Part shown: positions 2,178 to 25,286 of the stretch, piece by piece
How positions within the stretch are numbered: position 1 is the stretch's first letter
Layout of the letters: each line of letters opens with the position of its first letter
DNA from: an archaeon
GTDB lineage: Archaea; Iainarchaeota; Iainarchaeia; Iainarchaeales; JANQMZ01
Assembly (NCBI GenBank): GCA_028279805.1
Contig: JANQMZ010000007.1
Span: 214,399-278,398, forward strand
Reading direction: 5' to 3'
DNA length: 64,000 bases
The notes under the pieces: generated by a model
Told to the model about the DNA's origin: nothing
Database searches by the model: none
The model's input: only the letters and a program-made list of their open reading frames with translations
Position numbers and translations under genes: made by a program

Positions 2178-3663
2178 ATTCCAGCTGATCCTGCTGGCGA
2201 ACACTGCTATTGAGATTCGATTAAGACATGCAAGTCTGAGAAACAAAGTTATGGTTGTTTCTGGCGAACGGCTCAGTAACACGTGGGTAATCTGCCCTTG
2301 GAAAGAATTAAACCCGGGAAACTGGGCATAATGTTCTATAGGCAAAATATTCTGGAATGATTTTTTGCTAAAAGGTTGTAACACCATGCTGTTACAATGT
2401 CCAAGGATGAGCCTGCGGTGGACTAGGTTGTTGGCGGGGTAACTGCCCACCAAGCCTTTGATCCATACGGGCCTTGAAAGAGGTGGCCCGGAGAAGGGAA
2501 CTGAGATACGGTCCCTAGCCCCACGGGGTGCAGCAGTCGCGAAACCTTTACAATGCACGAAAGTGTGATAAGGGAATCTCAAGTGCTACTTTTTGTGGCT
2601 TTTGCCAACTTTAAAAAGGTTGGCGAATAAGTGGAGGGCAAGATACGTGCCAGCCGCCGCGGTAACACGTACTCCGCAAGTGGTGTTCACTAATATTGGG
2701 CCTAAAACGCCTGTAGCCTGTTCAAAAAGTTTTTGGTGAAATCGGCAAGCTCAACTTGTCGAAGTGCCAAAAATACTGTTGAACTCGAGACCGGGAGGTG
2801 TGAGAGGAATTTTCGGAGTAGCGGTGAAATGTTATGATCCCGAAAGGACCACCAGTAGCGAAGGCGTCTCACAAGAACGGTTCTGACGGTGAGAGACGAA
2901 AGCTGGGGGAGCGACCCGGATTAGATACCCGGTTAGTCCCAGCCGTAAACGATGTGGATTAGGTGTTCTGACACTGTAAAGTGCTGGAGCGCCACAGCGA
3001 AGGCGTTAAATCCACTGCCTGGGGAGTAAGGTCGCAAGGCCGAAACTTAATGGAATTGGCGGGGGCGCACTACAAGGGGTGGATGCTGCGGTTTAATTGG
3101 ATTCAACGCCAGACAACTCACCAGGGTTGACAGCACAATGATGGACAGTCTGAAGGGCTTTCCTGAGGCGCTGAGAGGTGTTGCATGGCCATCGTCAGCT
3201 CGTACTATGAAGCGTCCTGTTAACTCAGGCAACGAGCGAGACCCACGCCACTAGTTGCTATTCACCTATTAGGTGGAGCACTCTAGTGGGACTGCTTGCG
3301 TAAGTGAGAGGAAGGAGTGGGCCACGGTAGGTCTGTATGGCCCGAATGCCCTGGGCTACACGCGGCATACAATGGTTAAGACAATGAGTTTCGAGTCCGA
3401 AAGGACAAGGTAATCCCCTAAACTTAACCTCAGTCCGGATTGAGGGTTGCAACTCACCCTCATGAAGCTGGAATCCCCAGTAATCGCGTGTCATTATCGC
3501 GCGGTGAATAAGTCCCTGCGCCTTGCACACACTGCCCATCAAGCCAGCTGAATAGGGTTTGGATGAGCTGTTTTCATCTGAGGATATCAATTCCATGTCC
3601 TGTAAGGCGGGCTAAGTTGTAACAAGGTGTCCGTAGGGGAACCTGCGGACGGATCACCTCCTT
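2178..3663 (+). rRNA. rrs: 16S ribosomal RNA (archaeal)
   Basis: 5' end ATTCCAGCTGATCCTGCTGG, internal GTGCCAGCCGCCGCGGTAA, 3' end GGATCACCTCCT; approx 1485 nt; ends +-5 nt. Confidence 0.9.
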
Positions 3664-3676
3664 AATTTATCAGCAA

Positions 3677-3704
3677 AGCTGTACGAACCCAAAAAGTTCA
3701 CAGG
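3677..3704 (+). other. 16S rRNA processing stem, 3' strand
   Basis: Complement of 2101-2128. Confidence 0.7.
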
Positions 3705-3771
3705 TAAAAATGGCTGAATATGAGTATTTAAAACATTTAAATGTTTTCAATCAAAAAGTTCTATAGTGTTT

Positions 3772-3802
3772 TATGTGCTATCTTTAGATAGCACCTGAAG
3801 CG
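3772..3802 (+). promoter_or_regulatory. conserved palindromic TATA-containing element upstream of tRNA-Ala (tatgtgctatctttagatagcacctgaagcg)
   Basis: Near-identical 31-nt copy at 36569-36599 upstream of tRNA-Ser(GGA); TATA-like tttagata 42 nt from tRNA 5' end; stem gtgctatct/agatagcac. Confidence 0.45.
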
Positions 3803-3824
3803 GAGTGTCCGTACGCAATCGGAC

Positions 3825-3897
3825 GGGCTCATAGCTCAGCTGGTAGAGCGCCGCCTTTGCAAGGCGGAGGCCACGGGTTCGATCCCCGTTGAGTCCA
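3825..3897 (+). tRNA. tRNA-Ala (anticodon TGC) in 16S-23S spacer
   Basis: GGGCTCATAGCTCAGCTGGTAGAGCGCCGCCTTTGCAAGGCGGAGGCCACGGGTTCGATCCCCGTTGAGTCCA; cloverleaf folds, G3:U70 Ala identity pair, T-loop TTCGATC, no encoded CCA. Confidence 0.9.
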
Positions 3898-4139
3898 TGC
3901 CCGATGTTTCGGGCGGGAACGTGTCATTTGCAATGACACTGGCACTTTGCGGAGTGCAAATTAGACTTAAATCCATTTTTTGGATTTATTGTTCCGTTTG
4001 GAACTGCGGGTCTGTCGCTTTTGACGGACTTAAGTAATTGACGTATGTTTTTTTCAAAACAAGGTTTTGAAATTGTCACTGAAAGTGATATGTAAAGTGC
4101 GCTTGTAAAATAGCGCCGCAAAGCACAGCGTCGGTTTTG

Positions 4140-4193
4140 CATTGGTAGGCAAATTGGTCTATTAATTAGTCATTAATTCAGCGAGTACAAGAG
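4140..4193 (+). other. 23S rRNA processing stem, 5' strand (pairs with approx 7154-7215)
   Basis: gcattggtaggcaaattggtctat...gtacaagag complementary to ctcttgtac...ggtagaccaagcctacaaccaatgc after 23S. Confidence 0.6.
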
Positions 4194-7162
4194 TTAATAC
4201 TAAGCCAGCTAGCGAATAACTTGGCTCAACCACCGATGACAGGCGTGGCAAGCTGCGATAAGCCATGGCGAGACGCATGCAGTCTTTGAACCATGGATTC
4301 CTTAATTATTCCGAAAGGAAGGGTAATGCGGTGAATTGAAGCATCTTAGTAACCGCAAGAAAAGAAATCGAATGAGATACCGTTATTATCAGCGAGAGAA
4401 AACGGTTCAGGTCAAACCGAATCCTTCATTGCAAAATGTTGGAAATGTGGTGTGAGCAGTTTACATCCAAATTTATTAGAAGAAGTTTTCTGGAACGTAA
4501 TGCCATAGAGGGTGAAAGCCCCGTATTTAAAATTTTGGAGGATGATTTTCTGTTTCAAGAGTAGCGTGCATTGGATATTGTGCGCAAACATGGGCATCTT
4601 TAATGCCTAAACCTAAAAATGTGTTGAGTCCGATAGTGAACTAGTACTGTGAAGGAAAGTTGAAAAGCATCCCTGACGGGAGTTTAAAAGCGTTTGAAAC
4701 TAGTTGGTGATTGGCTGATGCAGCGTGAAAGAAACGATTCTCTTAAAAGAAACTTTTTGAAAAATTGGAATCGATAAGAGATGATCAGCGTTGCATCGTT
4801 CGTCTTGAAACACGAGCGAGGGAGTTTGTTGTTGTGGCGAGATTAATTTCATTATGAAAGAAATCATAGCGAAAGCGAATAGTTCGCAGCTTCGGTGAGG
4901 AACAAAGTATGTTCTGCTTTTAGTCACTGCAACAAGACCTGAAAACAGGTGATCTATTCTTGGGCAAGATGAAGCCCTCCTTCCGGGGGGTGGAGGTCTG
5001 AACAGTAGCTAGTCTATCTGCACTGATGATCTGAGAATAGGCGTAATATGCGACTCGAACCTGTCGATAGCAGGCTCCTCTTAAAGTAGCTCTCAGGCTA
5101 GCCTGGTTGGAGAAGCCATATGGTGTAGAGATACTGATTAAAAAGTACTGGGGCGAGAGCCCTAGCTTTTTTGTCAAACTCCAAAGTCATATGGTTTGTA
5201 GAAAACCGGAGTAGGAGCATTCGGGTAAGCCGAATGTTCTTGAGGGGAACAACCCAGTCGTAGGTTAAGGCCCATAAACACCAGTTAAGTGTTAAACCGA
5301 AGGGTGTTCTTATGCTAAAACAGTAGGGAGGTTGGCTTAGAAGCAGCCATCCTTTAAAGAATGCGTAACAGCTCACCTACCTAGGATGAGAGCCCCAAAA
5401 ATAATCCGGGCTAAACTGGTTGCCGATACCTACGGGCACTCATTTTTTGAGTGGTTCAATAAAGAGGTATTCTGATGGAGTTAAAGCAAGGCAGTAATGT
5501 CTTGTGAATCTTTCAGAAAAATGGATCCTCGTGCTAGTATTAACTATTGAGCGGTGAGAATCCGCTCCCCCGAAAGGACAAGGGTTCCTTAGCGCTTATT
5601 ATAAGCTAAGGGTCAGTCGGCCCTAAGCATGTTCATAACTTGAAACATGCAAAAGGGAAACAGGTTCATATTCCTGTACTATTCAAATACGCTTTCGGCA
5701 ACGAATGGCTATTTTTTGACGCTTTGAGCTAGGAAAGTTTTCTTGTCTGAAAACTTAACAAGCATAGTTCTTTGGAGAACTGTCATTGTGAGAAAAAGAA
5801 TAAAGCTTGGAATAGCCGCAAGGTTTTTCCGATGCTCATAGCCCTTGAAAAGAAAAATAGCAAGAATTTTGAATAACCGTACCGAGAACCGAGAAAGGTG
5901 TCCTGGCTTAGGAAGCCAAGGGGTATCAGGATAACAACGTTGAGGGAATTCGGCAAATTAGCCCTGTATCTTTGGTATAAGGGGTGCCTGTTTTGAAGAA
6001 AGCAGGTTTCAATAGCAAAGGGAGTCCGACTGTTTACTAAAAACACAGGTCCCTGCAAGTCTGTAAAGATGTGTATAGGGGCTGACTTCTGCTCACTGCC
6101 AGTACGTGAAACTCCGGTTCAATGGAATTAAGCGCTGGTAAAGAGCGGGCCTAACTCTGAGGCTCTTATGGTAGCGTAATACCTTGCCGGTTTATTGCCG
6201 GCTTGCACCAACGAAGTAACGAGATTCCCACTGTCCCCAACATTGGCCTGATGAACTCGCTGCCCGGTGAACATGCCGGGGACTTCCAACGGGAAGAGAA
6301 GACCCCACGGAGGTTTACTACAGTCTGATGCTGTGATATAATTTTTGGAGTACAGTGTAGATGGGAGTAATCGAAATAATTTCGCTAGGAATTATGGATA
6401 CATCAATGGAACACCATCCTTCAAAAATTGTACCGCTTACTCGTAAGAGGACACCATCAGGTGGGTAGTTGGACTGGGGCGGTACGCCCCTGAAACAGTA
6501 TCAGGGGCGCCCAAAGGTCTGCTCAGACGAGTCGGGAATTCGTCGTAGAGTGCAAGAGCAAAAGCAGGCTTGACCTTGTTTCACAAAGCAAGAAACGAGG
6601 ATTCGAAAGAACGGTCTAGCGAACGACAGTGTGCCTTTTAAAGGGGCCCTGTTCTGACAGTGAACTTACCCTGGGGGTAATTGTGTTGTCGTGGGTAAGA
6701 GTACACATCGACCCCACGGTTTGCTGCTTCGCCGTCGTCTCATGGCATCCTGGGCGTGCATAAGCGCCCAAGGGTGGAGGTGTTAACTCATTAAAGCCGT
6801 ACGTTAGTTGGGTTGAGAACGGTGCGAGCCAGTTTTGATCCTATCTGTTGGAAGTGCAAGGTGACTGAGGGGAAGCTCCAATCAGTACGAGAGGAACGTT
6901 GGGTCGCAGCCACTGGTTTACCAGTTGTTTGACAAAGCATTGCTGGGTAGCTACGCTGTAACTGATAAGGGCTGAAAGCATCTAAGCTCGAAGCAGTCCC
7001 TGAAAAGAGTCACCTATGACTGAATATGTTTTTTCTGCGGAAAAAATATCTAAGTCCGAGAGTTCCCGTAAAAGACGGGTTTGATAGGCTGGAAGTGTAA
7101 GCTAAAAGCTTCGGCGATTAGTTAAGCTCACCAGTACTAAACACTTGAGTTGACTCTTGTAC
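4191..7162 (+). rRNA. rrl: 23S ribosomal RNA (archaeal)
   Basis: 5' region ...ggcaagctgcgataagccatggcgagacgc; 3' region ...ggctgaaagcatctaagctcgaag...ccagtactaaacacttgagttgactc; approx 2970 nt; ends approximate (+-15 nt). Confidence 0.85.
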
Positions 7163-7215
7163 AAAGAACAGTGAGTTTGTGGCAAATTGGTAGACCAAGC
7201 CTACAACCAATGCAT
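7154..7215 (+). other. 23S rRNA processing stem, 3' strand
   Basis: Complement of 4140-4193. Confidence 0.6.
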
Positions 7216-7217
7216 GT

Positions 7218-7232
7218 TTTTTATTTTTTTTG
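7218..7232 (+). terminator. oligo-T tract (ttttttattttttt) after rRNA operon
   Basis: Archaeal intrinsic terminators are T-runs; no 5S gene follows. Confidence 0.5.
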
Positions 7233-7772
7233 AATAATGTTGATTGCATGAGCAGATTAAGAGAATTAAAAAAAGCGAAAAATGAAACCAAAAACAATTC
7301 AATGATTTGGCTGGTTGCCGGAATTGTTGTATTGCTTGGAATTGGAAGTGCTTTGTTTTTATTTAGTGGATCATCCAATTCCGGAAATTCTTCAGAATTG
7401 AATACTGCCGGTTTAAGTTTTCCTTTGGTTAATGTTCACTGGCATGCCACTCCTATTGTAAATGTTTGCGGTGAAAACAAGCCAATTCCTGTTGCGCCTG
7501 TTACTGACCATTTGTTGCACACTCATGAGGACAGATTAATTCATATTGAAGGCACTGTTAACAGCCCTGAACAAATTACTTTAGGCCGGTTTTTCGGTTT
7601 GGTTGGAGTTAAATTTTCTTCAACTCAGTTGTTGGATAAAACAAATGGCGATGTTTGTGAGAACACTGGACAGCCTGGAAAAGTTTCAATGACTGTTAAT
7701 GGTGTTCCAAGTGAAGAGTTTGAAAACCATGTTGTAAGGCATGGTGAAACAATTATAGTAAGTTTTGATTAA
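7230..7772 (+). CDS. hypothetical exported/membrane protein (start uncertain; may be at Met 7248 or later)
   Basis: 180 aa ORF; N-terminal hydrophobic helix IWLVAGIVVLLGIGSALFLF then Ser/Asn-rich linker; annotated start lies inside the rRNA terminator T-run. Confidence 0.45.
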   Translation: MNNVDCMSRLRELKKAKNETKNNSMIWLVAGIVVLLGIGSALFLFSGSSNSGNSSELNTAGLSFPLVNVHWHATPIVNVCGENKPIPVAPVTDHLLHTHEDRLIHIEGTVNSPEQITLGRFFGLVGVKFSSTQLLDKTNGDVCENTGQPGKVSMTVNGVPSEEFENHVVRHGETIIVSFD

Positions 7773-7810
7773 TCAATAAGCTTTTTATACTCTCAATGAG
7801 CAATTATAAT

Positions 7811-8133
7811 GTAAGGTAGTGAAAGGGCAGTTAAGGAATTCTCTGAATTCTTAGGAAAGTCCACCCACTCGTTAAAAATCTCGCAAGAGAAATTCTCGAA
7901 AGGGAGTCCATTGGAACAGAAACGAACTCAGGCAAACTTTGACAATGATAAAAAATTGAGTTGTTTGTTTTTGGGATGAAACGGCTGATGGTTTGAGTGC
8001 AAGTCATTGAGACGCTTAGACGAATGCTGCCAAGATGTGCTTTGTCAAAAAAGCAGGAATCAACAACAGAATGATTCTCGGTTTTTGAAACCGTATCCTA
8101 ACAGAAGGTGGCTTACTCTTCACTGCCTTACAT
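7811..8133 (+). ncRNA. rnpB: RNase P RNA (archaeal type)
   Basis: ORF-free 400 bp gap; CR-I motif AGGAAAGTCC at 7851-7860; CR-V motif ACAGAAGGTGGCTTAC at 8101-8116 with P4 covariation (GTCCACC/GGTGGC); terminal P1 pairing gtaaggtagtgaa / ttcactgccttac; upstream TATA ctttttatac approx 25 nt before 5' end; followed by T-run. Confidence 0.75.
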
Positions 8134-12071: not shown

Positions 12072-14948
12072 GTGAATTTTAGCTCTATTGAAAAAAATAG
12101 TCAGAAAACTTGGGAAGATGAAAAACTTTTTTCTCCGGAAATTGATTCAGAAAAAAAAGGATTTTACATTCAGGTTGCTTACCCGTATCCAAGCGGGGCA
12201 ATGCATATAGGACATGCAAAAACGTACACTACTACAGATATTATTGCAAAATACAAAATGCTTGCAGGCTATAATGTGTTAATGCCAATGGGATGGCATG
12301 TTTCAGGAACACCCGTGCTGGCAAGCGTTGAAAAATTAAAGGAAAAAGATTCTGAAACAGTTAAAATTTTTACAGAAAATTTTAAAATTCCTGAAAAAGA
12401 TTTAAAAAAAATGCATACGCCTGATGGCCTTGTTAATTATATGGTTGATGAAGCGGAATACGGTTACAAAAAAGGAATGAAAATTTTGGGATTCGGAATT
12501 GACTGGAGAAGAGAGTTGAAAACAATTGATGAACAATATAAAAAATTTATTGAATGGCAGTATGAAAAACTGAATCAAAAAAAATTAATCGGAAAAGGAA
12601 AATATCCGATTCGTTATTCACCAAAAGACAAAATGGCTGTCGGAGACCATGATTTGAAAGAGGGAGAAGGAATAGGAATTCAGGAATTTACTTTGCTGAA
12701 ATTCAAACTTGAAGGATTTAAGAACAGGTTTTTGGTTGCAGCTACTTTAAGGCCTGAAACAGTTTACGGGCAGACAAATTTATGGTTAAATCCGGAATAC
12801 AAATACACTGTCATAAAAACAGGTAAAGAGGAATGGATTTTAAGTGAAAAAGCGGCAGAAAAGTTAATTTATCAAAAAGAAAACATAAAAAAAATTGGGA
12901 AAATGAACTCAAGAGAGCTTTTAGGTGAAAAAGTTGAAGCTCCTGGAATTGACAGAAAAATTCCGATCTGGCCTGCTTCTTTTTGTGATCCTGAAATTGG
13001 CTCAGGAATTGTAACAAGTGTTCCGAGTGATGCTCCTATCGACATGGCCGCTTTGATTGACCTGCAGTCTGATGAAAGCATTGCAAAAAAACACGGGCTT
13101 GATTTTGAGGAAATTAAAAATACAAAAATTATTCCGATTATTAAGACCAAAAAATTCGGAGAAAATGCAGGGGAAAAAATTTTAAAAGAAATGAATATAA
13201 AAAATCAAAAAGAGCTTGATAAGCTAGAAAAAGCAAAAGAAATTGTTTACAAAGAAGGGTTTCATTCAGGAGTCATGCTTGAAGCTGCCGGAAAATTCAA
13301 GGGATTAAAAGTTTCAAAAGCAAAAGATTTGATTAAGGAAGAATTGATTAAACAGGGAAAAGCTGATTTATTTTTTGAACTTGAAGGAAAAGTTGTTTCC
13401 AGGTCGGGCGGAGAATGTGTTGTTCGTTTGCTTGATGACCAGTGGTTTGTAAAATATGGCAATAAAGAATGGAAAAAGAACAGTAAAAAAGATTTGGACG
13501 GAATGAAAATTGTTCCGGAAGTTTTTAGAAAACAGTATGAACAGATTTTTAACTGGCTTGATGACAAGCCTTTGACCCGTGCCAAAGGCCTGGGTACAAA
13601 ATTTCCATGGCAAAAAGACCAGGTAATTGAACCGCTGGGAGATTCAACTGTTTACATGGCTTATTTTACTATTGCACATTTGATTAATACAATTGAAGCT
13701 CAAAAGTTAAACGATGAGTTTTTTGATTTTATTTTTCTGGGAAAAGGTTCAGCAAAAAATGTTGCCGATAAAACCGGTTTAAAAGTGGATTTAATTGAGG
13801 AATTGAAAAAAAATTTTGATTATTGGTATCCTCTGGCTTTTAATGTTTCAGCCATTGAATTGATTCCGAATCATATGAGTTTCAGCATTTTTCAGCATAA
13901 TGCAATTTTTCCTCAAAACAAAAGGCAGATTGGCACAATTAATTTGGGAATGCTTATTTTGGAAGGAAAAAAAATGAGCTCATCAAAAGGAAATGTTATT
14001 CTGATTAATGATATTTGCAAAAAAATGGGAACTGATTATGTCAGGTTTTCTTTAATGAATTTTGTTGAACCGTGGGAAGAAATGAACTGGCAGTCAAAAG
14101 AAGTGTCAAAAGGAATTAAAAATTTGAATAATTTTGTTGAACAAATTTTCAAACTTGCAAACTCGGTTGATGAAGAAAAAATTGATTTAAAAAAATTAAA
14201 TGATGTGGATAAATGGTTTTTGAACCGGATAAATTTTAGAATTAACAATTATATTGGAAAAATGAATGAATTTGAATTAAGATCAGCCTTGCAGGAAATG
14301 TCCTTTAATTTGGCAAAAGATTTTAAGTGGTATAAAAGAAGAAATTCAAAATTAAACAATGCGATTATTTTTTATTTTGTTAAAAACTGGTGTAAAATTA
14401 TTTCACCTTTTATGCCTCACCTGGCTGAAGAATTATGGAGGCATGTTTTGAAACAAAAAAACTCCGTTTTTTTATCAGGTTTGCCTGAAAAGCAAAAAAT
14501 TGACAAATCAGTGGGGGCGGGAGAAAACTTAATTGAAAAAGTTTTGGATGACGTTATTGCCATTAAGGCTTTGGCTAAAATTGAAAAACCTAAAAAAATT
14601 GTTTTTTACATTGCCGATGAATGGAAATGGAATGCTTTGAAATTGCTGAAAAAAGTGGACAGGCCTGATTTTGGCTTGGTTATAAAAACTTTAATGGCTG
14701 ATAAAACTGTTAAAAAACAGGGTAAAACTGCTCAACTGGTAGCAAAAGAATTTTCTTCAAGATTAATGGAGTTTAAAGATTTGGAAAAAATTGATGAGGA
14801 AAAAATTTTGAATGATTCAAAGGAGTTTCTGTTAAAGGAATTGAATGCTCAAAAAATTGAAATTTTTCATGAGAAAAAATCAGGTTTTGACCCCCAAAAC
14901 AAAGCGGTTAAATCAATGCCGGGAAAGCCTGCAATTTATTTGGAGTAA
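12072..14948 (+). CDS. leuS: leucyl-tRNA synthetase, archaeal/eukaryal type
   Basis: 958 aa class I aaRS; HIGH motif (PYPSGAMHIGHAKTY) and KMSKS motif (KMSSSKGN). Confidence 0.92.
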   Translation: MNFSSIEKNSQKTWEDEKLFSPEIDSEKKGFYIQVAYPYPSGAMHIGHAKTYTTTDIIAKYKMLAGYNVLMPMGWHVSGTPVLASVEKLKEKDSETVKIFTENFKIPEKDLKKMHTPDGLVNYMVDEAEYGYKKGMKILGFGIDWRRELKTIDEQYKKFIEWQYEKLNQKKLIGKGKYPIRYSPKDKMAVGDHDLKEGEGIGIQEFTLLKFKLEGFKNRFLVAATLRPETVYGQTNLWLNPEYKYTVIKTGKEEWILSEKAAEKLIYQKENIKKIGKMNSRELLGEKVEAPGIDRKIPIWPASFCDPEIGSGIVTSVPSDAPIDMAALIDLQSDESIAKKHGLDFEEIKNTKIIPIIKTKKFGENAGEKILKEMNIKNQKELDKLEKAKEIVYKEGFHSGVMLEAAGKFKGLKVSKAKDLIKEELIKQGKADLFFELEGKVVSRSGGECVVRLLDDQWFVKYGNKEWKKNSKKDLDGMKIVPEVFRKQYEQIFNWLDDKPLTRAKGLGTKFPWQKDQVIEPLGDSTVYMAYFTIAHLINTIEAQKLNDEFFDFIFLGKGSAKNVADKTGLKVDLIEELKKNFDYWYPLAFNVSAIELIPNHMSFSIFQHNAIFPQNKRQIGTINLGMLILEGKKMSSSKGNVILINDICKKMGTDYVRFSLMNFVEPWEEMNWQSKEVSKGIKNLNNFVEQIFKLANSVDEEKIDLKKLNDVDKWFLNRINFRINNYIGKMNEFELRSALQEMSFNLAKDFKWYKRRNSKLNNAIIFYFVKNWCKIISPFMPHLAEELWRHVLKQKNSVFLSGLPEKQKIDKSVGAGENLIEKVLDDVIAIKALAKIEKPKKIVFYIADEWKWNALKLLKKVDRPDFGLVIKTLMADKTVKKQGKTAQLVAKEFSSRLMEFKDLEKIDEEKILNDSKEFLLKELNAQKIEIFHEKKSGFDPQNKAVKSMPGKPAIYLE

Positions 14949-15373
14949 AAACCTTTGTTTTCATAATCTAAATACATTTTACAGCATAGTGAACCTTTGC
15001 TTACAGCTTCATGCAAATCTTCCGAAGTGCCCCATTTTATTGCTTGATATTGTGTAATTCCTTTTATAGGCTGAGGTGCTTTTGGTTTTCCGTGCACTAT
15101 CTCTGCTTCATATTCTTTCATATTAAGAATATATTTTTCCCGTTCTGTCTGGTCTTCCCCAATAAGTTTAATTATTTTGAGCTTTACTCCAAGTTTTTGT
15201 TTTCCTGAACGCAATGTTGCTTTTTCAAAAGATTCATCTTCTTTAACTGAACCTGCTGGTAAACCCCAAGCCCCTGGCAGGTTTTCATCATCGTCTGGCC
15301 TTTTAACTATTAAAAATTTTGATCTGTCTTCAGTGTAAATCACATAAGAAATTGCGTTCTTTACTGGTTTCAT
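14936..15373 (-). CDS. Nudix-fold protein with degenerate Nudix box
   Basis: 145 aa; ...FLIVKRPDDDENLPGAWGLPAGSVKEDESFEKATLRSGKQKLGV fits Nudix fold but REUxEE is RSGKQK (catalytic Glu residues absent). Confidence 0.5.
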   Translation of the reverse strand: MKPVKNAISYVIYTEDRSKFLIVKRPDDDENLPGAWGLPAGSVKEDESFEKATLRSGKQKLGVKLKIIKLIGEDQTEREKYILNMKEYEAEIVHGKPKAPQPIKGITQYQAIKWGTSEDLHEAVSKGSLCCKMYLDYENKGFYSK

Positions 15374-15412
15374 ATCTTTTATAGGAGCAGAGACTTATAT
15401 AAAATTTTTCAT

Positions 15413-17197
15413 TTATTTTGAGAGTCCTTCTTCAACATTTGTAACTTTTTTAACTTTTTTAAGTGCTTTCATGGCTTTGTCAAATTTGGTTTTTGTTTTT
15501 GCATCAACCCTGAATTCAACGTAAAGATTTTGACCAAGCCTTTCCTGATAAACATTTTCAATATTTATTTTAAATTTTGAAAGCACGCCAGTTAAGTCAT
15601 GCATTAAGCCTATTCTGTCACCTGCTCTTACAAAAATATATTTTAAACCTATTTTTTTGTCGGATTTTCTGGTTGACAATTTTAATGCTTTTATTATTTT
15701 TTCTTTTGTCTGAAGAGAATTTGTCATCTGAAGCCAGTCCGTTGAAACTGTTTTCTTTTTTGATTTGACGCATTCAATTCTGTTTCCGGAATGAAGTTCT
15801 GTGAAAAAAGGAACTTCTTTTCCGTTAACAAAAACTTTTTTTAGGTTGTTTCCTGTGTTTTTGTCAATGTGATATGCATAGTCCAGAGCAGTTGAATGTG
15901 AAGGTAAAGAATCAATTTTGCCGCTGTTGTCAAAAACAAAAATATGGTTTTGCAAAAATTCTTCTTTTAATGCGTCAAAAAATTTGTCACTTGACGCCAG
16001 TTTTAATTCTAAAACAGCTGCGGCTCTTCCAAGTTTTTTCTGGTAAAGAGTTTTTGAGCCTTTTTCAGGATCCAGGGCTGCTATTCCTTTTCTGGCAATT
16101 TTGTCCATTCTTTCAGAACGAATATAAACACGTACAGGCAGGCCTTTTGGGCCCAAAACTGTTGTGTGAATTGAACTGTATGTTCCGTCTCTTGGAACCG
16201 CTATAAAGTCTTTTAATTTTCCGGGAATTGGGTAAAAAGTTGAATGAATTAAACCTAAAACTTCATAGCATTCAGTGAAATTTTTGGTAACAACTACCAG
16301 TACAAGATAGTCATATATTTCGTCAAGTGAACGGTTTCCTTTTTTCATTTTTGCATAAATGTTATACAAGCTTTTTTCAAGAGTGTAAAAACGATAATTT
16401 CTGAAAGGAAAAACAATTTTGTTTTTTAAAATTTGAATCATTGAATCTGTTTGTTTTAACTTTGATTTTTTTTGTTTTTTAATTTTTTCTGACAATTCCT
16501 GAAATATTTTTGGTTCAAGAATTTTAAAACTTGAATCTTCCATTTCCCTTGCAATTGAATGCAATCCGAACCGGTGTGCTAACGGTGCATAAACCTGTAA
16601 AATTTGGTTGGCAATTCTTTTCCTTTTTTTTGGTTTTAAATATGATAATGTTCTTGAATTATGAAGCTTGTCTGCAAGTTTTATCAAAATGACTCTGTAA
16701 TCTTTTACCGATGCCAACAAAAGTTTTTGAAAAGATTTTAATTCTGCGGTTTTTCTTCCTTCAAGGGAAATTATGTCAAGTTTTGTTACTCCTTTAACAA
16801 GTTCTAAAACTGTTTTTCCGAATTTTTCTTCAACTTCTTTTTCTGTAGCATCAGTATCTTCCAAAACGTCATGCAATAGTCCTGCAATTATTATTTCATT
16901 TGAAACGTTGTATTCAAGCAAAATGTTTGCAGTTTCATAAAGATGAACAAAATATTTTTCGCCCGATTCTCTTTTTTGTTTTGAATGTTTTTCTTCGGCA
17001 AAAATAAAAGCTTCTTTTATTTTTTTTATATTTGGTTTTTTTATGTTTTTCCTGGCTTTTTTTAATAAAAGTTTTAATTCTTTTCTGAAAAGTTTTGCTT
17101 CTTTTTTTGTAAATGCTTTTAAAAAATCAAGTTTTGGCAGGCTTGGAACGCTTTTCAAAATGGGTTTTTTTGACATATTATAGTATATTTGAAGCAA
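15413..17197 (-). CDS. long RelA/SpoT homologue (RSH): HD hydrolase + (p)ppGpp synthetase + TGS + ACT domains
   Basis: 594 aa; HD motif LLHDVLEDT; synthetase motifs YNIYAKMKKGNRSLDEIYDYLVLVVVT and SIHTTVLGPKGLPVRVYIRSERMDKIARKGIAA; TGS-like HIFVFDNSGKIDSLPSHSTALDYAYHI...VNGKEVPF; C-terminal ACT-like segment. True start may be Met at 17176. Confidence 0.8.
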   Translation of the reverse strand: MLQIYYNMSKKPILKSVPSLPKLDFLKAFTKKEAKLFRKELKLLLKKARKNIKKPNIKKIKEAFIFAEEKHSKQKRESGEKYFVHLYETANILLEYNVSNEIIIAGLLHDVLEDTDATEKEVEEKFGKTVLELVKGVTKLDIISLEGRKTAELKSFQKLLLASVKDYRVILIKLADKLHNSRTLSYLKPKKRKRIANQILQVYAPLAHRFGLHSIAREMEDSSFKILEPKIFQELSEKIKKQKKSKLKQTDSMIQILKNKIVFPFRNYRFYTLEKSLYNIYAKMKKGNRSLDEIYDYLVLVVVTKNFTECYEVLGLIHSTFYPIPGKLKDFIAVPRDGTYSSIHTTVLGPKGLPVRVYIRSERMDKIARKGIAALDPEKGSKTLYQKKLGRAAAVLELKLASSDKFFDALKEEFLQNHIFVFDNSGKIDSLPSHSTALDYAYHIDKNTGNNLKKVFVNGKEVPFFTELHSGNRIECVKSKKKTVSTDWLQMTNSLQTKEKIIKALKLSTRKSDKKIGLKYIFVRAGDRIGLMHDLTGVLSKFKINIENVYQERLGQNLYVEFRVDAKTKTKFDKAMKALKKVKKVTNVEEGLSK

Positions 17198-17211
17198 TTT
17201 ATAAAAATCTT

Positions 17212-19023
17212 TTACATTTGCTCTAATGGTTCAACATTTAACAATTTTAAGGCTTTTTTCAGGACAATTGAAAAAGCTTTTACAAGTGAGAGTCTTGCTT
17301 TAACGGTTTCCTTGTTTTCAGCATTTAAAACGGGGATATCCTGGTAAAAAGAATTAAACGAGGTGGCCAATTCGTTTAAATAAATGCATAAATGATGCAT
17401 TGAATTTGAAGAGCGGCTTTTTTGAACAGCATCTTTAAAATGCCATAATTTTTTTATAACTTCAAGTTCTTTTTTTTCTTTCAACAAAGAAAAATCTGCA
17501 TTTTCAGGATTTGAAGCTTTTCTTAAAATTCCTTTTGCTCTTGCATAAGAATACATTAAATATGGTCCTGAGTCTCCCTCAAAAGATAATGATTGCTGGG
17601 GAACAAATGTAAAATTTTTTTTGGAATCAATTTTTAACATTGAAAATTTTATTGCTGCAAGAGCTATTTTTAACGCTCTTTTTTCTAATTCATCTTTTTT
17701 TACATTTGGAAATCTTTTAATAATTTCTTTTTGTGCGGAATTTTTTAACTGTTTTATTAAATCATCAGCATCAATTGTGTTGCCTTCACGGCTTTTTAAT
17801 TTTCCTTCAGGCAATAAAACCAGGCCATAACTTAAATGATGAGATTTTTTTGCTTCACTGTAACCCAATAAATCCATTATTTTGAACAATTGTTTAAAAT
17901 ACAAGTCTTGTTCTGATGCAACAACATAATAACTTTCATCAAATTTGTAATCTTTAAATTTTTTTAACATTAAAACCATGTCCTGGTTAATGTAAATTGA
18001 TGAACCGTCTGAGCGCAGAATTATTTTGTTCGGAATTTTATATTTTTCCAAATCAGCTATAATTCTGTTTTTATCATCTTTAACAAAAACACCTGTTTTT
18101 AGCCCTTTTTTTATCAAAGGTTTTGCTTTGTCATACAAATCTGATTCAAAATAAATTTTGTCAAATTCTGAACCGAATGTTTTGTAAGTTTCTTTAAAAC
18201 CTTCAAGAGCCCAGTCTCTTGATTTTTTCCATAATGCTCTTACATTTTTATCTTTTCTTTCCCAGTCTAAAAGCATTTTTTGTGCTTCTTTTTCAAGTGT
18301 TTCATCTTTTTTTGCTTTTTCGTGAAACAAAACATAATATTTTCCGGCAAACTTGTCTCCTTTTAATTTTTCTTTTTCAGGTGTTGAATTTTTTCCGAAT
18401 TTTTTGTATGCAACAAGCCCCTGGCAGATGTGAATGCCCCGGTCATTTATTATGTTTACTCGTGCGACTTTGTTTTCATAAAATTCGAGCAAATTTGAAA
18501 AAGCCATTCCGATGCTGTCATTTCTTAAATGCCCTAAATGTAAAGGTTTATTTGGATTTGGCTGGGAATATTCCACTACAATTTTTTTATTTTCAGGTTT
18601 TGGTTTTCCAAAATTTTCTTTTTTTTCAAAAATTTCTGTTAAAATTTTTTGAGTTAAAAATGTGCTGTTGACAAAAAAATTCAGATAAGGCCCTGCTGCT
18701 TCCGCTTTTGATAATTCTTTTGGCATTTTTAATTTTTGTGAAAGATTTTTTGCAATTTCATTCGGGTTTTTTTTAAGCTCTTTTGCGAGCAAAAAACAGG
18801 GAAAAGCGTAATCACCGAGCTTTGAATCCGGGGGAATTTCCAACGCTTTTATTATCTGCTTTTCTTTTAATGAGGAAACTTCCTTGGATAAAAGTTTTGC
18901 GATTATTGTTTTAAAATGCATGGAATAATTAGAAAAAACCCTTTTAATAAGGTTTTCCAGCTCTACTTTTTTTTGGTGAAATTGGATGTATGCAGTATCT
19001 TCATCCGGAGGAAAAGACAGCAC
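17212..19023 (-). CDS. argS: arginyl-tRNA synthetase
   Basis: 603 aa class I aaRS; HIGH-region NPNKPLHLGHLRN; C-terminal DALR anticodon-binding region. Confidence 0.88.
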   Translation of the reverse strand: MLSFPPDEDTAYIQFHQKKVELENLIKRVFSNYSMHFKTIIAKLLSKEVSSLKEKQIIKALEIPPDSKLGDYAFPCFLLAKELKKNPNEIAKNLSQKLKMPKELSKAEAAGPYLNFFVNSTFLTQKILTEIFEKKENFGKPKPENKKIVVEYSQPNPNKPLHLGHLRNDSIGMAFSNLLEFYENKVARVNIINDRGIHICQGLVAYKKFGKNSTPEKEKLKGDKFAGKYYVLFHEKAKKDETLEKEAQKMLLDWERKDKNVRALWKKSRDWALEGFKETYKTFGSEFDKIYFESDLYDKAKPLIKKGLKTGVFVKDDKNRIIADLEKYKIPNKIILRSDGSSIYINQDMVLMLKKFKDYKFDESYYVVASEQDLYFKQLFKIMDLLGYSEAKKSHHLSYGLVLLPEGKLKSREGNTIDADDLIKQLKNSAQKEIIKRFPNVKKDELEKRALKIALAAIKFSMLKIDSKKNFTFVPQQSLSFEGDSGPYLMYSYARAKGILRKASNPENADFSLLKEKKELEVIKKLWHFKDAVQKSRSSNSMHHLCIYLNELATSFNSFYQDIPVLNAENKETVKARLSLVKAFSIVLKKALKLLNVEPLEQM

Positions 19024-19639
19024 TTTTGCATTGTTTAAGGCATTGGAACAAAATTTTAAAGTAACTCATCTGATTCATGTTTACAATCCGGATACTTCAA
19101 GGGTAAGATTTCATGGTTATAAGCCTGAAATGGTTTCAAAACAAGCTGAACTTTTAGGGCTAAAGGAAATTATAAAACCCACAAGATCTGAAAAATTTGA
19201 ACAGGATTTTGAACTTGTTTTAAAAGAAGCAAAAAAACAGGGAATAAAAGGGTTGATTTTTGGAAATCTTTTTCTTGAAGATGTAAGAGAATTTTATCAA
19301 AAAAATGTCACAAATGCAGGCCTGGAATATTATGATGTTTTATGGAAACAGCCGACTGAAAAAGTTTTAAAAAATTTTATTAAAACCGGTTTTAAAGCAA
19401 TTATAACTTCGGTTTGGTTAAAAAAACTTGATAAAAAATTTTTAGGAAAACATATTAATGAAAAATTTTTAAAAGAAATTAAAAAAGAAAAAAATGTTGA
19501 TTTCTGCGGAGAAAACGGAGAATATCATTCTCTTGTTTTTAACGGGCCGTTATTCAAAAAACCGCTGGAATATGAAACATTTGGTGTTCATGAAGAAAAG
19601 GAAAACATTTTTTTGGATATAAGAAAAAAAGAAAATTAA
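18986..19639 (+). CDS. PP-loop ATPase of diphthamide-synthase family (Dph6/MJ0570-like)
   Basis: 217 aa; N-terminal PP-loop SSGGKDS; family typical of archaea/eukaryotes; 5' end overlaps argS on opposite strand. Confidence 0.65.
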   Translation: MYAVSSSGGKDSTFALFKALEQNFKVTHLIHVYNPDTSRVRFHGYKPEMVSKQAELLGLKEIIKPTRSEKFEQDFELVLKEAKKQGIKGLIFGNLFLEDVREFYQKNVTNAGLEYYDVLWKQPTEKVLKNFIKTGFKAIITSVWLKKLDKKFLGKHINEKFLKEIKKEKNVDFCGENGEYHSLVFNGPLFKKPLEYETFGVHEEKENIFLDIRKKEN

Positions 19640-20280
19640 ACTGCTTGTGCTTTTTCCTGTTTTCTTTTAAATCGTTTTAATCTGAACGTGTCTTCTCTTT
19701 CCATTTCTTCAAGCCTTAACTGAATAAATTTGGCATCCAGTTCCATTGCGGGAATAATGTTGAATTCCAAAGCATTTACCCTGCGTTTTGTTTTGCCTAT
19801 TTCCATCAATAATTTTTTTAAAGTGGTTTCAATTTCAGCTGCAATAATAATATTTTTAATTAAAGTGCCGTAACTTTTGGCGGCATCATCAATGTAAGCC
19901 GATGTTCCAATTACACCATAACCTCTCTCATTAAACTTCCATTCTAAAACACTTGAATCTGAATCAATTTCAGGGACCCTTACACCCATAACCATTTTGC
20001 TGTTAACATTTAAATTTAATTCAGAAACTCTTCCAAGAGCAGCTGATTTAACAGAAAAAGTTCCTTCAATTGCCCTTGCAAGATTAATTGAATCAGTTGC
20101 TTTTTTAAAATTTTGATTTAACTCTGACTTCATTTCTTTTGCTTTTTCAAAAACTTTAAAAAATTCTCTTATTAAACCGTCTCTTTTTCTCTGAAGCAAA
20201 GAATGCCCGGATTTTGCCAGCTTGATTTTTCTCCTCAGTTTTAATAACTCGGAACGAGTTGGTTTAATGTCTTTAGCCAT
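19636..20280 (-). CDS. atpD: A/V-type ATP synthase subunit D
   Basis: 214 aa; MAKDIKPTRSELLKLRRKIKLAKSGHSLLQRKRD conserved N-terminus of subunit D. Confidence 0.85.
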   Translation of the reverse strand: MAKDIKPTRSELLKLRRKIKLAKSGHSLLQRKRDGLIREFFKVFEKAKEMKSELNQNFKKATDSINLARAIEGTFSVKSAALGRVSELNLNVNSKMVMGVRVPEIDSDSSVLEWKFNERGYGVIGTSAYIDDAAKSYGTLIKNIIIAAEIETTLKKLLMEIGKTKRRVNALEFNIIPAMELDAKFIQLRLEEMEREDTFRLKRFKRKQEKAQAV

Positions 20281-20289
20281 TTTTTCACT

Positions 20290-21717
20290 TTATTCTTTTT
20301 CAGTAACAGTTTCTTTTTCTTTCTCTTCAGGTTTTTGTTCCTGAACATTTTCTTCCACAGGTTTTTCAGTGTAATATTTTTCAATTAATTCTTCATCAAT
20401 TCTTGTTAACTCTGTTCTCGGCAACAAGGATAACAAGTCCCAGCCAAGATTTAATGTGTCATCAATTGACCTGTTTTCATGGTTTCCCTGTGCAATAAAT
20501 TTTTGTTCAAAATTGTCTGCAAATTTTAAAAATCGTTTATCCCTGTCACTCATTGCTTCCTCACCAACAATTGTAACAAGCCCTCTTAAATCCCGTCCCT
20601 CTGCATAAGCAGCATACAGCTGATTCGAAACCGCTTTATGGTCCTCTCTTGTTTGTTTCGGGCCTATGCCTGCATTCATTAACCTGCTTAAACAGGGCAG
20701 AACATCAATAGGCGGCATGATTCCTTTTCTGTTCAAATCTCTTCCCAGAACAATTTGCCCCTCGGTAATATACCCTGTCAAATCGGGAACAGGATTTGTA
20801 ATGTCATCTCCTGGCATTGTTAAAATTGGCACCTGTGTAACAGAGCCTTGTTTGTTTTTGATTAAGCCTGCTCTTTCATAAATGCTTGCCAAATCTGTAT
20901 ACATGTAACCAGGATAACCACGCCTGCCCGGAACTTCTTCTCGTGCCGCGCCTATCTCCCTTAAAGCTTCACAGTAATTTGTCATGTCAGTCAAAATAAC
21001 AAGCACGTCCATTTTTTCTTCAAAAGCCAGGTATTCTGCGGTTGTCAAAACCATTCTTGGCGTAATTAACCTTTCAATTGCAGGGTCGTCTGCCAGATTC
21101 AAAAAAATTGCAGTTCTTTCCAGTGCACCTGTCTCCTCAAAATCACGGATAAATTGCTGGGCTTCCTCGCTTGTAATTCCCATAGCCCCAAACACAACTG
21201 CAAAATTTCCTCCTTTGGCTTTGGATTGTCTTGCAATCTGTAACGCAATTTCATTGTGAGGCAAACCTGAACCTGAAAAAATCGGCAGCTTTTGTCCTTT
21301 AACCAAAGTATTCATTCCGTCTATTGTTGAAATGCCTGTCTGAATAAAATCTTTAGGAGAATCTCTTGAAAAAGGGTTGATAGCAGCGCCATTAACATCT
21401 TTTTTTTCTTTTGGAATAATTTCAGGACCTTTGTCTATCGGTTTTCCAAGACCTGAAAAAACTCTGCCAAGCAAATCTTTTGACACGCCAAGCCGGATTG
21501 TTTTTCCCGTAAATTTAACAGTTGAAGCTTTTTCTATTCCGGATGTTCCTTCAAAAACCTGTACAACAACAACATCTTCAGATGTGTCCAGTACTTGTCC
21601 GTTTTTTTTCTCAGAACCCAAATCTATTTCAACCAATTCTCCGAATGAAACGTCGTGTGTTTTTTCAACAAAAATTAAAGGGCCTGCAACTTTTGAAATT
21701 GTTTTATATTCCTTCAT
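20290..21717 (-). CDS. atpB: A/V-type ATP synthase subunit B
   Basis: 475 aa; alpha/beta-family non-catalytic subunit motifs ([17 protein letters not shown]). Confidence 0.9.
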
Positions 21718-21720
21718 TTT

Positions 21721-23481
21721 TTATCCTCCAATTAAACCATTAACCTCTTTTTCAATTTTTTCAGAAATTTCACTGATTTTTTTGTTAAAATTTTTTTCTT
21801 CAATTAATCTTGCTTTAACAAGCTCGTTTTTACTTTCAATGTTTGTAACAGCTTCGACACTGACACCTTTATCTACAGCATTTTCCGCCAAATCTCCAAA
21901 TGAAATAATTGCTTTTAACAATCCGGATTGTTTTTTTAAAGAACAAAAAGAATCAATTTCATGAAAAGCATTCTGCTGCAAAAAAGCTTCCCTGATAATT
22001 CTTGCAATTTCCAATGTTAACCTTTCTTTTTCCGGTAAAGAATCAGAACCAACAAGCTGAACAATTTCCTGCAGTTCGTCTTCTTTTTGCAGAATATTCA
22101 TTGCCTTTGTTCTTAAATAAATTGAATCCTTTGAAACATTGTCAACATACCATTGCTTTAACGGCTCATTATACAAAGAATAAGAATTCAGCCAGTTAAT
22201 TGCCGGAAAATGCCTTCTGTGAGCCAATTTTGCGTCCAATGCCCAGAAAACTTTTGTAATTTTTAACGTATTTTGGGTTACAGGTTCAGAAAAATCTCCG
22301 CCTGGCGGGGACACAGCACCTATTGCTGTAACCGAACCAATTCTTTTTTTGTCAGAGCCTAAACAGCTTACCCGGCCGGCCCTTTCATAAAATTCAGCCA
22401 GTCTTGCAGCAAGATATGCAGGATAACCTTCTTCACCCGGCATTTCCTCCAGTCTTGATGAAATTTCTCTCATTGCTTCAGCCCATCTTGAAGTTGAATC
22501 CGCCATCAATGAAACATCATAACCCTGGTCTCGAAAATATTCTGCAATTGTCATTCCGGTATAAATTGAAGCTTCTCTTGCAGCCACCGGCATGTTGGAT
22601 GTGTTTGCAATTAAAACAGTTCTTTCCATTAACGGCCTGCCGGTTTTAACATCCTGCAATTCCGGAAATTCTGTTAAAACTTCCGTCATTTCGTTTCCTC
22701 TTTCACCACAGCCGATATAAACAACGATTTCAGCATCAGACCATTTGGCTAACTGTTGTTGTGTAACCGTTTTTCCGGAACCGAACGGTCCTGGAATGCT
22801 TCCTGTTCCACCTTTTGCAATCGGAAAAAAAGTATCCTGCAGTCTTTGTCCTGTGATTAAAGGAATTTCAGGAAACAGTTTTTCTTTTGAAGGCCTTGGC
22901 CTTCTTACAGGCCAGTAATGGCCCAGATATAATTTTTCACCGTTGTCTAATTCGCCAATTGTTTCTTTTACGGTAAAAGAACCTGATTTAATTTTTTTAA
23001 TTTTGTGTGAAACTTTTCCGGTAATTGTAGGCGGAATCATTATTTTGTGAACAATGTTTTCTGTTTCCTTAACAGTGCCAATCACATCCCCGCCTGAAAC
23101 TTTGTCACCTTTTTTTACTGTTGCATTAAATTTCCACTTTTTTTTAACATCCAAGCCGGGAACATCTGCTCCTCTTAAAATAAAATTTCCCATTTGTTTT
23201 ACAAGAACAGGCAAAGGCCTCTGAATTCCGTCATAAATCTGTCCAAGCATTCCCGGTCCCAGAAAAATTGACAAAGGTTTTCCTGTGTTTGAAACTTTTT
23301 CTCCCGGTTTTAATCCGGTTGTTTCCTCATAAACCTGAATTGTAACTTTGTCGCCGGAAATCTGAATAACCTCACCCATTAATTCTTCTTCACCGACTTT
23401 AACCAAGTCATACATTCTTGCTTTCAGTCCCTGTGCAACAACAACAGGTCCGGAAATTCTGTAAATTTTTGCTACTTCCAT
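21721..23481 (-). CDS. atpA: A/V-type ATP synthase catalytic subunit A (no intein)
   Basis: 586 aa; Walker [10 protein letters not shown]; A-subunit-specific N-terminal domain. Confidence 0.92.
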
Positions 23482-23771
23482 AAGTCCACCCCAACATTTT
23501 GTTTAATCATTTCACGCAGGCTTACTTCCTGCCCGGTTTCAGATAATGTCACTATAACCGGTGTAACAGCCTTTTCAAGCCTTTTTTTTGTGTTAAAAGA
23601 TAATGCCTGAAAATCTTTTTCCTCCATTACCAGCACACCAAAATCCTGGTTGCCGATTAGCCTGTTTACTTTTTCATCAATCTCTTTGTCTGTTACAACA
23701 AAAGAATGTTTTAAACCTGCCAACTGAAAGCCTGTTACAAAATCATCAGAACCAATTATTGCCATTTCCAT
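23472..23771 (-). CDS. atpF: A/V-type ATP synthase subunit F
   Basis: 99 aa; position between C and A in operon; [17 protein letters not shown] typical. Confidence 0.75.
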
Positions 23772-24749: not shown

Positions 24750-25257
24750 GAATTATTTCAAAAGTTTGGTCAACACGAATTGTTTTGTCCGCATTTTCCA
24801 GAATCACGCCTCCAAGGCATTCAATTTCACCTGAAAAAGACAATTCAGGAAAAGCTTTCATGACAAACTTTTTATCCTCTTTATTGGAATAAAAAAATTT
24901 AGCATCAGGAAGCTCGTTTAAACCTATTTTAACAGTATTTTCAAGCACTTTTTCTTTTTGTTTTTTTGGCATTTTTTTGATTTTGTCAAAGGTTTTTTCC
25001 ATGATATCCCGTACAACATCTCTTTTGAATTTCATTGACTTTTTTTTAATCAAAATTTCAGTTGCAGAAATTTCTTTCCTGTCAAATTCCTGTGCAAATT
25101 CAAGCGTTTTTTTCTTTGTTTTTGCATGAAGTTTGTCTGCTTTTTTCCGCGCTTCTTTTTCAAGCGAAGACGCTTCCTGTTGCGCTTGTGAAACTATGCG
25201 TTTCTCTTCTTCATGCGCTTGTGACAGTATGCCATCCAATACTTTTTTGAGAGTCAT
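24694..25257 (-). CDS. atpE: A/V-type ATP synthase subunit E
   Basis: 187 aa, helical N-terminus, operon position K-E-C. Confidence 0.75.
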   Translation of the reverse strand: MTLKKVLDGILSQAHEEEKRIVSQAQQEASSLEKEARKKADKLHAKTKKKTLEFAQEFDRKEISATEILIKKKSMKFKRDVVRDIMEKTFDKIKKMPKKQKEKVLENTVKIGLNELPDAKFFYSNKEDKKFVMKAFPELSFSGEIECLGGVILENADKTIRVDQTFEIILERIKEENFNELAKNLFE

Positions 25258-25286
25258 TTTTTCTCCTTAAAAAACTTTTTCAATTT

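Follow-up and report, generated by a model that had tools for sequence, protein, structure and literature searches.

A gene on the minus strand of a 64-kb stretch of archaeal DNA (64,000 nucleotides of contig JANQMZ010000007.1, GenBank assembly GCA_028279805.1, called the window throughout) encodes a long RelA/SpoT homologue (RSH) that keeps its hydrolase active site and has replaced catalytic and ATP-binding residues of its synthetase domain. We put at about two in three the probability that the protein is a monofunctional (p)ppGpp-type 3′-pyrophosphohydrolase carrying a pseudo-synthetase scaffold, and that it belongs to a DPANN subfamily of bacterial Rel-like origin. A previous reading of the same DNA, referred to here as the original prediction, took the gene to be a full-length RSH of the stringent response in an archaeal setting. 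That observation was real but over-read, as the residues point to a native archaeal derivative of long RSHs that would act as a hydrolase only rather than as a stringent factor.

Domain anatomy and active-site residues

The open reading frame (ORF) is uninterrupted on the minus strand over 15413..17197 of the window. It stays open up to a TTG at 17197 and its first in-frame ATG lies at 17176; two assemblies use this codon, the likely start of the gene, which then covers 15413..17176 (minus) and encodes 587 residues plus a stop codon. An identical 587-aa product is called on the 853,278-bp NCBI contig and, for run SRR20820740, on a 24-kb assembly from Logan. Pfam searches recovered HD_4 (3.4e-43), RelA_SpoT (3.3e-22), TGS (2.1e-6) and ACT_4 (6.2e-8), each above its gathering cut-off, and these are the four domains that had been predicted, including the PF04607 fold on which the prediction had been staked. 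HD (PF13328) precedes RelA_SpoT (PF04607) in a single polypeptide, as in long RSHs. Bacillus subtilis Rel (6yxa) matched the protein with an E value of 1e-96 (residues 44-516), and an AlphaFold2 (AF2) model built on 27 relatives (mean predicted local distance difference test score, pLDDT, 84.9; predicted template modelling score, pTM, 0.73) superposed through its N-terminal half on Staphylococcus aureus Rel with a template modelling (TM) score of 0.93 and a root mean square deviation of 2.3 Å. Based on the Pfam domains, the B. subtilis Rel match and this superposition, the gene encodes a genuine RelA/SpoT homologue. The description "full-length" was not correct, for although all four domains are there, the helical and zinc-finger domains are absent and the TIGR00691 (spoT_relA) model gave 459 bits, below its curated cut-off of 499.2, with model positions 1-457 of 687 matched.

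No gaps interrupt the catalytic region when the protein is aligned to B. subtilis Rel, so that residues could be mapped directly. The predicted (p)ppGpp-hydrolase (HD) domain comprises residues 56-205 (16562..17011, minus), and its catalytic and Mn-binding residues R69, H78, H102, D103, E106, D107, D169 and N173 are all kept (R44, H53, H77, D78, E81, D82, D144 and N148 in the numbering of RelSeq). The HD motif is therefore intact, as had been stated. The synthetase (SYNTH) domain, residues 268-367 (16076..16375, minus), has the PF04607 fold, but the synthetase motifs said to be intact are substituted at catalytic and ATP-binding positions. In B. subtilis numbering the changes are R241 to L, S247 to N, R269 to V, E324 to R, Q326 to Y and AAHW to AALD, whereas D264, K243, K251, Y308 and H312 are still present. 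Of the residues that identify a synthetase (G240, R241, D264, R269, E323/324, Q325/326 and AAHW), D264 alone is kept. According to PMC13299517, which summarises Hogg et al., D264 and E323 are the essential carboxylates and the E323Q substitution by itself abolishes synthesis by RelSeq.

The C-terminal half departs from bacterial Rel in a similar manner. The TGS domain occupies residues 413-470 (15767..15940, minus), and its CCA-stacking histidine (H420 of B. subtilis, H432 of E. coli RelA) is Asp. In the bacterial enzymes this histidine stacks on the tRNA 3′ CCA end, and CCA recognition is lost in an H420E mutant (PMC7797070). The C-terminal ACT/RRM domain spans residues 513-582 (15431..15640, minus) and is joined to TGS by a linker of ~40 residues that the AF2 model folds into two short helices only. 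The helical (PF19296) and zinc-finger (PF28438) domains (HEL and ZFD), a region of ~158 residues that the bacterial hits carry, are missing from the window RSH and from all members of the clade described below. Hence the TGS-helical-zinc-finger-ACT order of long RSHs is reduced to TGS and ACT, and of the ribosome-contacting helical, ZFD and RRM elements ACT/RRM alone is present. Having lost the synthetase site, the residue that senses tRNA and the domains that bind the ribosome, the window RSH probably does not sense starvation in the bacterial style, and the role assigned to it originally, that of a core stringent-response enzyme sensing uncharged tRNA, does not fit its residues.

In the scheme we favour, a bacterial Rel-like enzyme would have been acquired long ago by a DPANN lineage of the Diapherotrites/Iainarchaeota type, would later have become hydrolase-only and would now be native. 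The HD domain would be the catalytic part, most likely a Mn2+-dependent 3′-pyrophosphohydrolase that converts (p)ppGpp, or a close 3′-pyrophosphorylated nucleotide, to GDP/GTP and pyrophosphate (PPi). The SYNTH domain would have been kept as a non-catalytic scaffold or regulatory pseudo-SYNTH, and TGS and ACT as intramolecular or allosteric regulators of hydrolysis, with ACT perhaps sensing an amino acid. Without its TGS histidine, helical domain and zinc finger, the protein would no longer sense uncharged tRNA on the ribosome as bacterial enzymes do. In some Rel enzymes the ACT domain is a binding site for branched-chain amino acids and stimulates hydrolysis. Given the arginine genes found near the RSH gene in some relatives, arginine is a candidate ACT ligand of the window protein, although this is speculation.

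The clade and its linkage to argS

Among the best 120 database hits, all proteins of 480-670 aa that lacked E-x-Q-x-R-T also lacked AAHW yet kept HDxxED, whereas nearly all of those of ~720 aa held E-x-Q-x-R-T, AAHW and HDxxED. A tree set of 265 sequences, to which a profile search of 1.84 billion proteins contributed its 150 best representatives, was analysed by distance-based neighbour-joining (NJ), 60 clade sequence clusters being set against 205 other RSHs. The 60 short proteins formed one clade with bootstrap support of 98/100 on the HD plus SYNTH columns, and the same 60 members were recovered at 63/100 on the SYNTH columns alone. The clade stands apart from all 205 other sequences and lacks HEL and ZFD, and so its members do not belong to the gammaproteobacterial SpoT lineage.

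The residue states seen in the window protein recur throughout the clade. G240 and R269 are found in none of the 60 members (182 and 201 of the 205 others have them), nor are H343 and W344 of AAHW (203/205 and 201/205 elsewhere) or the CCA-stacking histidine of TGS (204/205); R241 survives in 5 of 60 as against 202 of 205. Position 324, which is Glu in 204 of the 205 other RSHs, is Lys in 54 clade members and Arg in 3, and position 326, Gln in 203 of the others, is Tyr in 41 of the 60. The eight HD residues are each present in 58-60 of the 60. Identity within the clade falls from HD (0.49) through SYNTH (0.43) to TGS (0.39), compared with 0.56-0.58 for all three domains among the other RSHs, and a median of 116 residues follows TGS versus 274. 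Loss of the synthetase residues and truncation are a trait of the family and not a lesion private to the window gene. The active-site check that had been proposed thus came out differently for the two domains, with the hydrolase site kept and the synthetase site replaced. Ahead of HD the clade proteins have a Lys/Arg-rich N-terminal extension, in the window the first 45 residues (17041-17176, minus), with 25.5% K+R and 10.7% D+E versus 17% and 16.5% in other RSHs; this could be a nucleic-acid-binding tail or a mere effect of AT-bias.

A bifunctional Rel-like stringent factor, which would make (p)ppGpp on uncharged tRNA and otherwise degrade it, and whose neighbouring aminoacyl-tRNA synthetase (aaRS) genes would reflect that role, is a very improbable reading of these data. 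Although all four Pfam domains are there, D264 and several nucleotide-contacting residues are kept and the gene is tightly linked to argS, the replacement of E324 by K/R and of Q326 by Y and the loss of R241 and R269 are clade-wide, one substitution at a catalytic glutamate being enough to inactivate RelSeq synthetase as noted above, and the TGS histidine, helical and ZFD features of such a factor are lost. What an intact version looks like can be seen in a second archaeal long RSH type of ~645 aa (P0013-P0016). Its member P0014 (647 aa, L012:2579-4522) is encoded on a DPANN contig that also carries aIF2-gamma and ribosomal protein S6e, the aIF2-gamma being closest to those of Woesearchaeota/Nanoarchaeota. 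Like the window RSH this type is shorter than bacterial Rel and lacks PF19296, but P0014 keeps the HD motif, E-V-Q-V-R-T, AAHW and the TGS histidine plus a RelA_RIS domain. It is not grouped with the hydrolase-only clade (0/100) and is not beside argS. From these motifs the Woesearchaeota/Nanoarchaeota-like P0014 RSH is apparently synthesis-competent.

The gene for arginyl-tRNA synthetase (argS, 17212-18921, minus) precedes the window RSH gene, its stop codon lying 35 nt upstream of the RSH ATG. The RSH gene had been placed between three aaRS genes, and alaS, leuS and argS are indeed there, but argS is upstream on the RSH strand and not downstream. The gene was found again in related genomes, as had been suggested, and ten clade loci were read (the window, L004, L005, L006, L007, L008, L009, L010, L011 and L094). 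In nine of the ten argS is directly upstream on the same strand, the exception being L006 (part of the loci were checked by tblastn). The two genes overlap in a TGATG in L009 and L011, are 5 nt apart in L094 and are separated by 35-73 nt elsewhere. Divergent ATPase genes are present at five loci (L007, L008, L009, L010 and L011), convergent leuS in L007, L009, L010 and L011, and convergent alaS in L004 and probably L008. The block ATPase-argS-RSH-leuS-alaS is common to relatives whose RSH proteins are only 36-40% identical, while the flanks vary among loci.

As a control, argS was sought within 5 kb of 80 synthetase-intact RSH loci from metagenomes, mostly bacterial-looking, and was found at none. 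These loci came from a metagenome-contig scan with the clade alignment, which picked HD-motif patterns shared with bacteria, and all 80 of 80 proved synthetase-intact. A scan of genome contigs with the single window protein returned two bacterial RSH loci and no archaeal relatives. The argS-RSH pair is specific to the clade and outlasts rearrangement of its surroundings, which argues for a single ancient acquisition followed by vertical descent of the clade RSH and suggests selection for the linkage; synteny does not by itself prove a functional link. In L005:645-7698 and L094:1642-7704, argG-argH (plus argF in the former) stand straight before argS-RSH on the same strand, giving an arginine-themed cluster with the RSH gene as its last member.

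The flanks of the pair can be described as follows. In the window an A-type ATPase operon (I, probably c, E, C, F?, A, B and D; 19636-27726, minus) reads toward argS. The I-c-E-C part is divergent from argS in the five relatives L007-L011, which points to an inversion of the operon beside the conserved pair. On the other side lie archaeal-type alaS (9393-12059, plus) and leuS (12072-14948, plus), both convergent with the RSH gene. A TATA-box-like candidate read from the sequence, TTTTTATAAA (17198-17207, minus), is centred ~26 nt upstream of the RSH ATG and may be the gene's own archaeal promoter. A second candidate of this kind, TTTTATATAA (15395-15404, minus), is ~26 nt upstream of the ATG of a Nudix-fold gene (14936..15373, minus) that begins 40 nt downstream of the RSH gene. 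Note that the ~26-nt spacing of TTTTTATAAA and TTTTATATAA fits archaeal promoters of leaderless mRNAs, but that at 31% GC such matches could arise by chance.

The Nudix-fold gene was considered as a partner (p)ppGpp pyrophosphatase comparable to bacterial Ndx8, MutT and NudG, and was rejected. It stands beside the RSH gene at none of the nine other clade loci and its Nudix box is degenerate (REUxEE has become RSGKQK), with three of three catalytic glutamates replaced in alignments to E. coli NudG (2rrk) and MutT (4v14). Judged by these residues, it may be a second pseudo-enzyme beside the pseudo-synthetase.

Archaeal host and other genes of the window

The archaeal context that had been claimed for the gene was borne out. 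Rfam models identified a complete archaeal 16S rRNA (2178-3662, plus), a tRNA-Ala between 16S and 23S (plus), a complete archaeal 23S rRNA (4187-7160, plus) and an archaeal RNase P RNA (7815-8127, plus) ~650 nt 3′ of the 23S gene. No 5S rRNA match was found in the whole 64-kb window, and the rRNA operon is 16S-tRNAAla-23S. This block from 16S rRNA to RNase P RNA (2178..8127, plus) lies 7 kb from the RSH gene and marks the contig as archaeal. Of the two aaRS genes that separate the rRNA operon from the RSH gene, alaS passes the archaeal equivalog model TIGR03683 and leuS passes TIGR00395, and on the other side the RSH gene is flanked by the complete A-type ATPase operon and by diphthamide synthase. 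The best named relatives of AtpA are from Candidatus Diapherotrites/Iainarchaeum (72-79% identity). The host is a DPANN archaeon and, because of these AtpA relatives, probably Iainarchaeota-like.

Given this setting we attach next to no credence to the alternative that the contig is chimeric or contaminated and its RSH gene bacterial, or that a recent transfer left behind a decaying pseudogene. In favour of that alternative, ordinary RSHs of ~720 aa, a few with bacterial names, are the nearest sequences beyond the clade. However, the neighbours of the gene are the same in the independent Logan assembly of SRR20820740, archaeal-type aaRS genes separate it from archaeal rRNA 7 kb away, the argS-RSH pair recurs on other archaeal contigs (nine of the ten clade loci including the window), and across the 60 sequence clusters the ORF is unbroken and the HD residues do not vary. 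Composition is also native-like, as had been proposed from the AT-rich codon usage: the RSH gene has a GC content of 0.307 and a third-position GC content (GC3) of 0.223, compared with 0.346±0.032 and 0.252±0.026 for 15 other genes, differences within about 1.2 standard deviations. The archaeal RNAs, the archaeal aaRS models, the ATPase operon, the AtpA relatives and the native-like GC together exclude a chimera or a recent insertion for practical purposes.

The window contains several other genes worth recording. A membrane H+-pyrophosphatase (55574-57529, plus; E 1.5e-267) handles PPi, which the proposed hydrolase would release, and a GMP synthase (39269-41098, plus) would contribute to guanine-nucleotide supply. 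A 390-aa protein (36874-38046, plus) matches the Pfam family MATCAP (PF08014, microtubule-associated tyrosine carboxypeptidase family) at 2.7e-55, which is unexpected in DPANN. A 743-aa ORF (33131-35362, minus) differs in composition from its neighbours, with a GC content of 0.40 and 1.3% Lys, compared with 9-16% in most other tabulated genes; it has no significant Pfam match and may be a surface protein or foreign in origin.

Relation to known enzymes and alternative activities

The best sequence and structure matches of the window RSH are bifunctional Rel enzymes of Firmicutes and others (B. subtilis Rel, 6yxa; RelSeq, 1vj7; S. aureus Rel, 7oiw), which share its domain order HD-SYNTH-TGS-...-ACT and its HD active-site residues but differ in the features listed above and in their host. 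The closest functional parallel would be the SpoT of Acinetobacter baumannii and other Moraxellaceae (SpoT[Hs], PDB 7qpr), likewise a long RSH with an intact HD domain and a dead pseudo-SYNTH, which matched the window protein with E values of 5e-51 in sequence and 1e-27 to 3e-28 in Foldseek. Experiments have shown A. baumannii SpoT (SpoTAb) to be a hydrolase only, in which the pseudo-SYNTH is strictly regulatory, the TGS domain no longer reads tRNA but serves as a scaffold that supports the HD site, and the C-terminal region activates hydrolysis (PMC9974481). The synthetase sites of the two were altered by different substitutions: SpoTAb lacks the Asp equivalent to D264 and has Thr for Gln, whereas the archaeal clade keeps D264 and reverses the charge at position 324 (E to K/R). 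SpoTAb also retains HEL and ZFD, and in its bacterium it partners RelA, whereas no partner synthetase is known for the archaeal RSH. The two are not grouped in trees. By this comparison the loss of synthesis in the archaeal clade would be independent and convergent, and the resemblance functional.

Small alarmone hydrolases, including MESH1 (3nqw, 5vxa, 6yvc and 7qoc), are HD-fold alarmone hydrolases that work without synthetase activity of their own, and some of the lineages that have them are ones in which (p)ppGpp is difficult to detect. They are single-domain proteins of ~180-200 aa, unlike the 587-aa window protein, which has four domains and keeps pseudo-SYNTH, TGS and ACT. Another long RSH outside Bacteria, plant RSH1, is of horizontal or endosymbiotic origin and has kept hydrolase function and lost synthetase function. 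However, RSH1 resides in the plastid, its substitutions follow another pattern and its C-terminal region is complete, and it acts with the RSH2/3 and CRSH synthetases.

Several observations weigh against a hydrolase-only alarmone enzyme of the history proposed. The NJ trees are crude, and HD columns alone recover the 60-member clade at only a weak 24/100. Because of that weak support, the distance-based trees and the fast evolution of the clade (mean within-clade distance 1.02, with mean distances to outsiders similar for all at about 1.07-1.11 in the NJ distance set), no bacterial donor of the clade RSH could be named from distances to the 205 outsiders. No second RSH or small alarmone synthetase (SAS) gene was found in the 64-kb window, and the origin of the substrate is the main weakness of the hydrolase reading. 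The SYNTH domain retains D264, K243, K251, Y308 and H312, and the new residues K324 and Y326 are conserved in their turn. It is hence under constraint and not decaying, and non-canonical activity or nucleotide binding by it is possible. Finally, the same HD family can take other substrates, as seen for human MESH1 with NADPH and with 3′-phosphoadenosine 5′-phosphosulfate (PAPS) (structures 5vxa and 9chy).

A serious rival, albeit one we consider unlikely, is an active HD hydrolase with a substrate other than (p)ppGpp, such as NADPH (compare metazoan MESH1), (pp)pApp, pGpp or a 3′-pyrophosphorylated tRNA end. In the last case the argS linkage would mirror a tRNA- or arginine-related role. Consistent with another substrate are the failure to detect (p)ppGpp in archaea, the window's lack of a synthetase, the MESH1-NADPH and MESH1-PAPS structures among the fold matches, and the arginine genes, with argS upstream at nine of ten clade loci and argG-argH at two. 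However, the HD site is invariant and matches that of bona fide (p)ppGpp hydrolases residue for residue, the TGS residue that reads the CCA end is lost, and the apparently synthesis-competent RSH of a related DPANN lineage means that alarmones may exist in DPANN communities.

We give very little credence to the other possibility, a neofunctionalised SYNTH-like domain that would serve as a metal-independent or otherwise non-canonical nucleotidyl or pyrophosphoryl transferase, or as a dedicated nucleotide sensor, Lys324 and Tyr326 having taken on new functions. The replacements are conserved and non-random (K in 54 and Y in 41 of the 60), D264, K243, K251, Y308 and H312 are kept, and domain identity within the clade is still 0.43. 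However, loss of G240, R241 and R269 removes ATP-binding elements, and structural or regulatory constraint can account for the conservation, as in A. baumannii SpoT. We know of no precedent for such a domain. The monofunctional hydrolase with a regulatory pseudo-SYNTH remains our preferred reading.

The use of (p)ppGpp by archaea is an old open question. An earlier survey found archaea to be without long RSHs and to have sporadic small ones only (Atkinson et al. 2011, PMC3153485), but the surprise that the original prediction expressed at an archaeal RSH is out of date. RelA/SpoT has been reported from 69% of Diapherotrites, 41.7% of Woesearchaeota, 21.3% of Pacearchaeota and 19% of Nanoarchaeota and was predicted to be of bacterial origin in DPANN (Li et al. 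2021, PMC8407392), so that its presence there is already known. For ppGpp in DPANN, Diapherotrites or Iainarchaeota, the literature searched held only the single-sentence report of Li et al., and neither the truncated, hydrolase-only domain make-up nor the linkage to argS was found described in the searchable literature. DPANN RelA/SpoT annotations read "synthetase/hydrolase" (PMC8407392), whereas the residues of the Diapherotrites-type gene indicate a distinct, monophyletic, truncated and probably hydrolase-only form, which gives no evidence for a bacterial-style stringent response.

A bolder possibility, which we hold only tentatively and consider doubtful, is that Iainarchaeota-type DPANN have long kept, by vertical descent, an argS-linked alarmone hydrolase without a synthesis-competent RSH of their own, the linkage being sometimes translationally coupled and in places extending to argG-argH. 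If this is true, (p)ppGpp or a related 3′-pyrophosphorylated nucleotide could be a real metabolite of these organisms, the product of an as yet unidentified enzyme or an import from bacterial neighbours or hosts. Alternatively, the Lys324/Tyr326 pseudo-SYNTH could have a new activity, possibly linked to arginine or ArgRS, or the alarmone hydrolase could be a defence against alarmone-type toxins. The clade would be an independent case of the loss of synthesis known from Acinetobacter SpoT and may inform why a pseudo-SYNTH is kept. A link with arginine or ArgRS can be tested starting from the conserved pairing of argS and RSH, and the putative hydrolase-only and apparently synthesis-competent DPANN forms provide two concrete proteins for assay.

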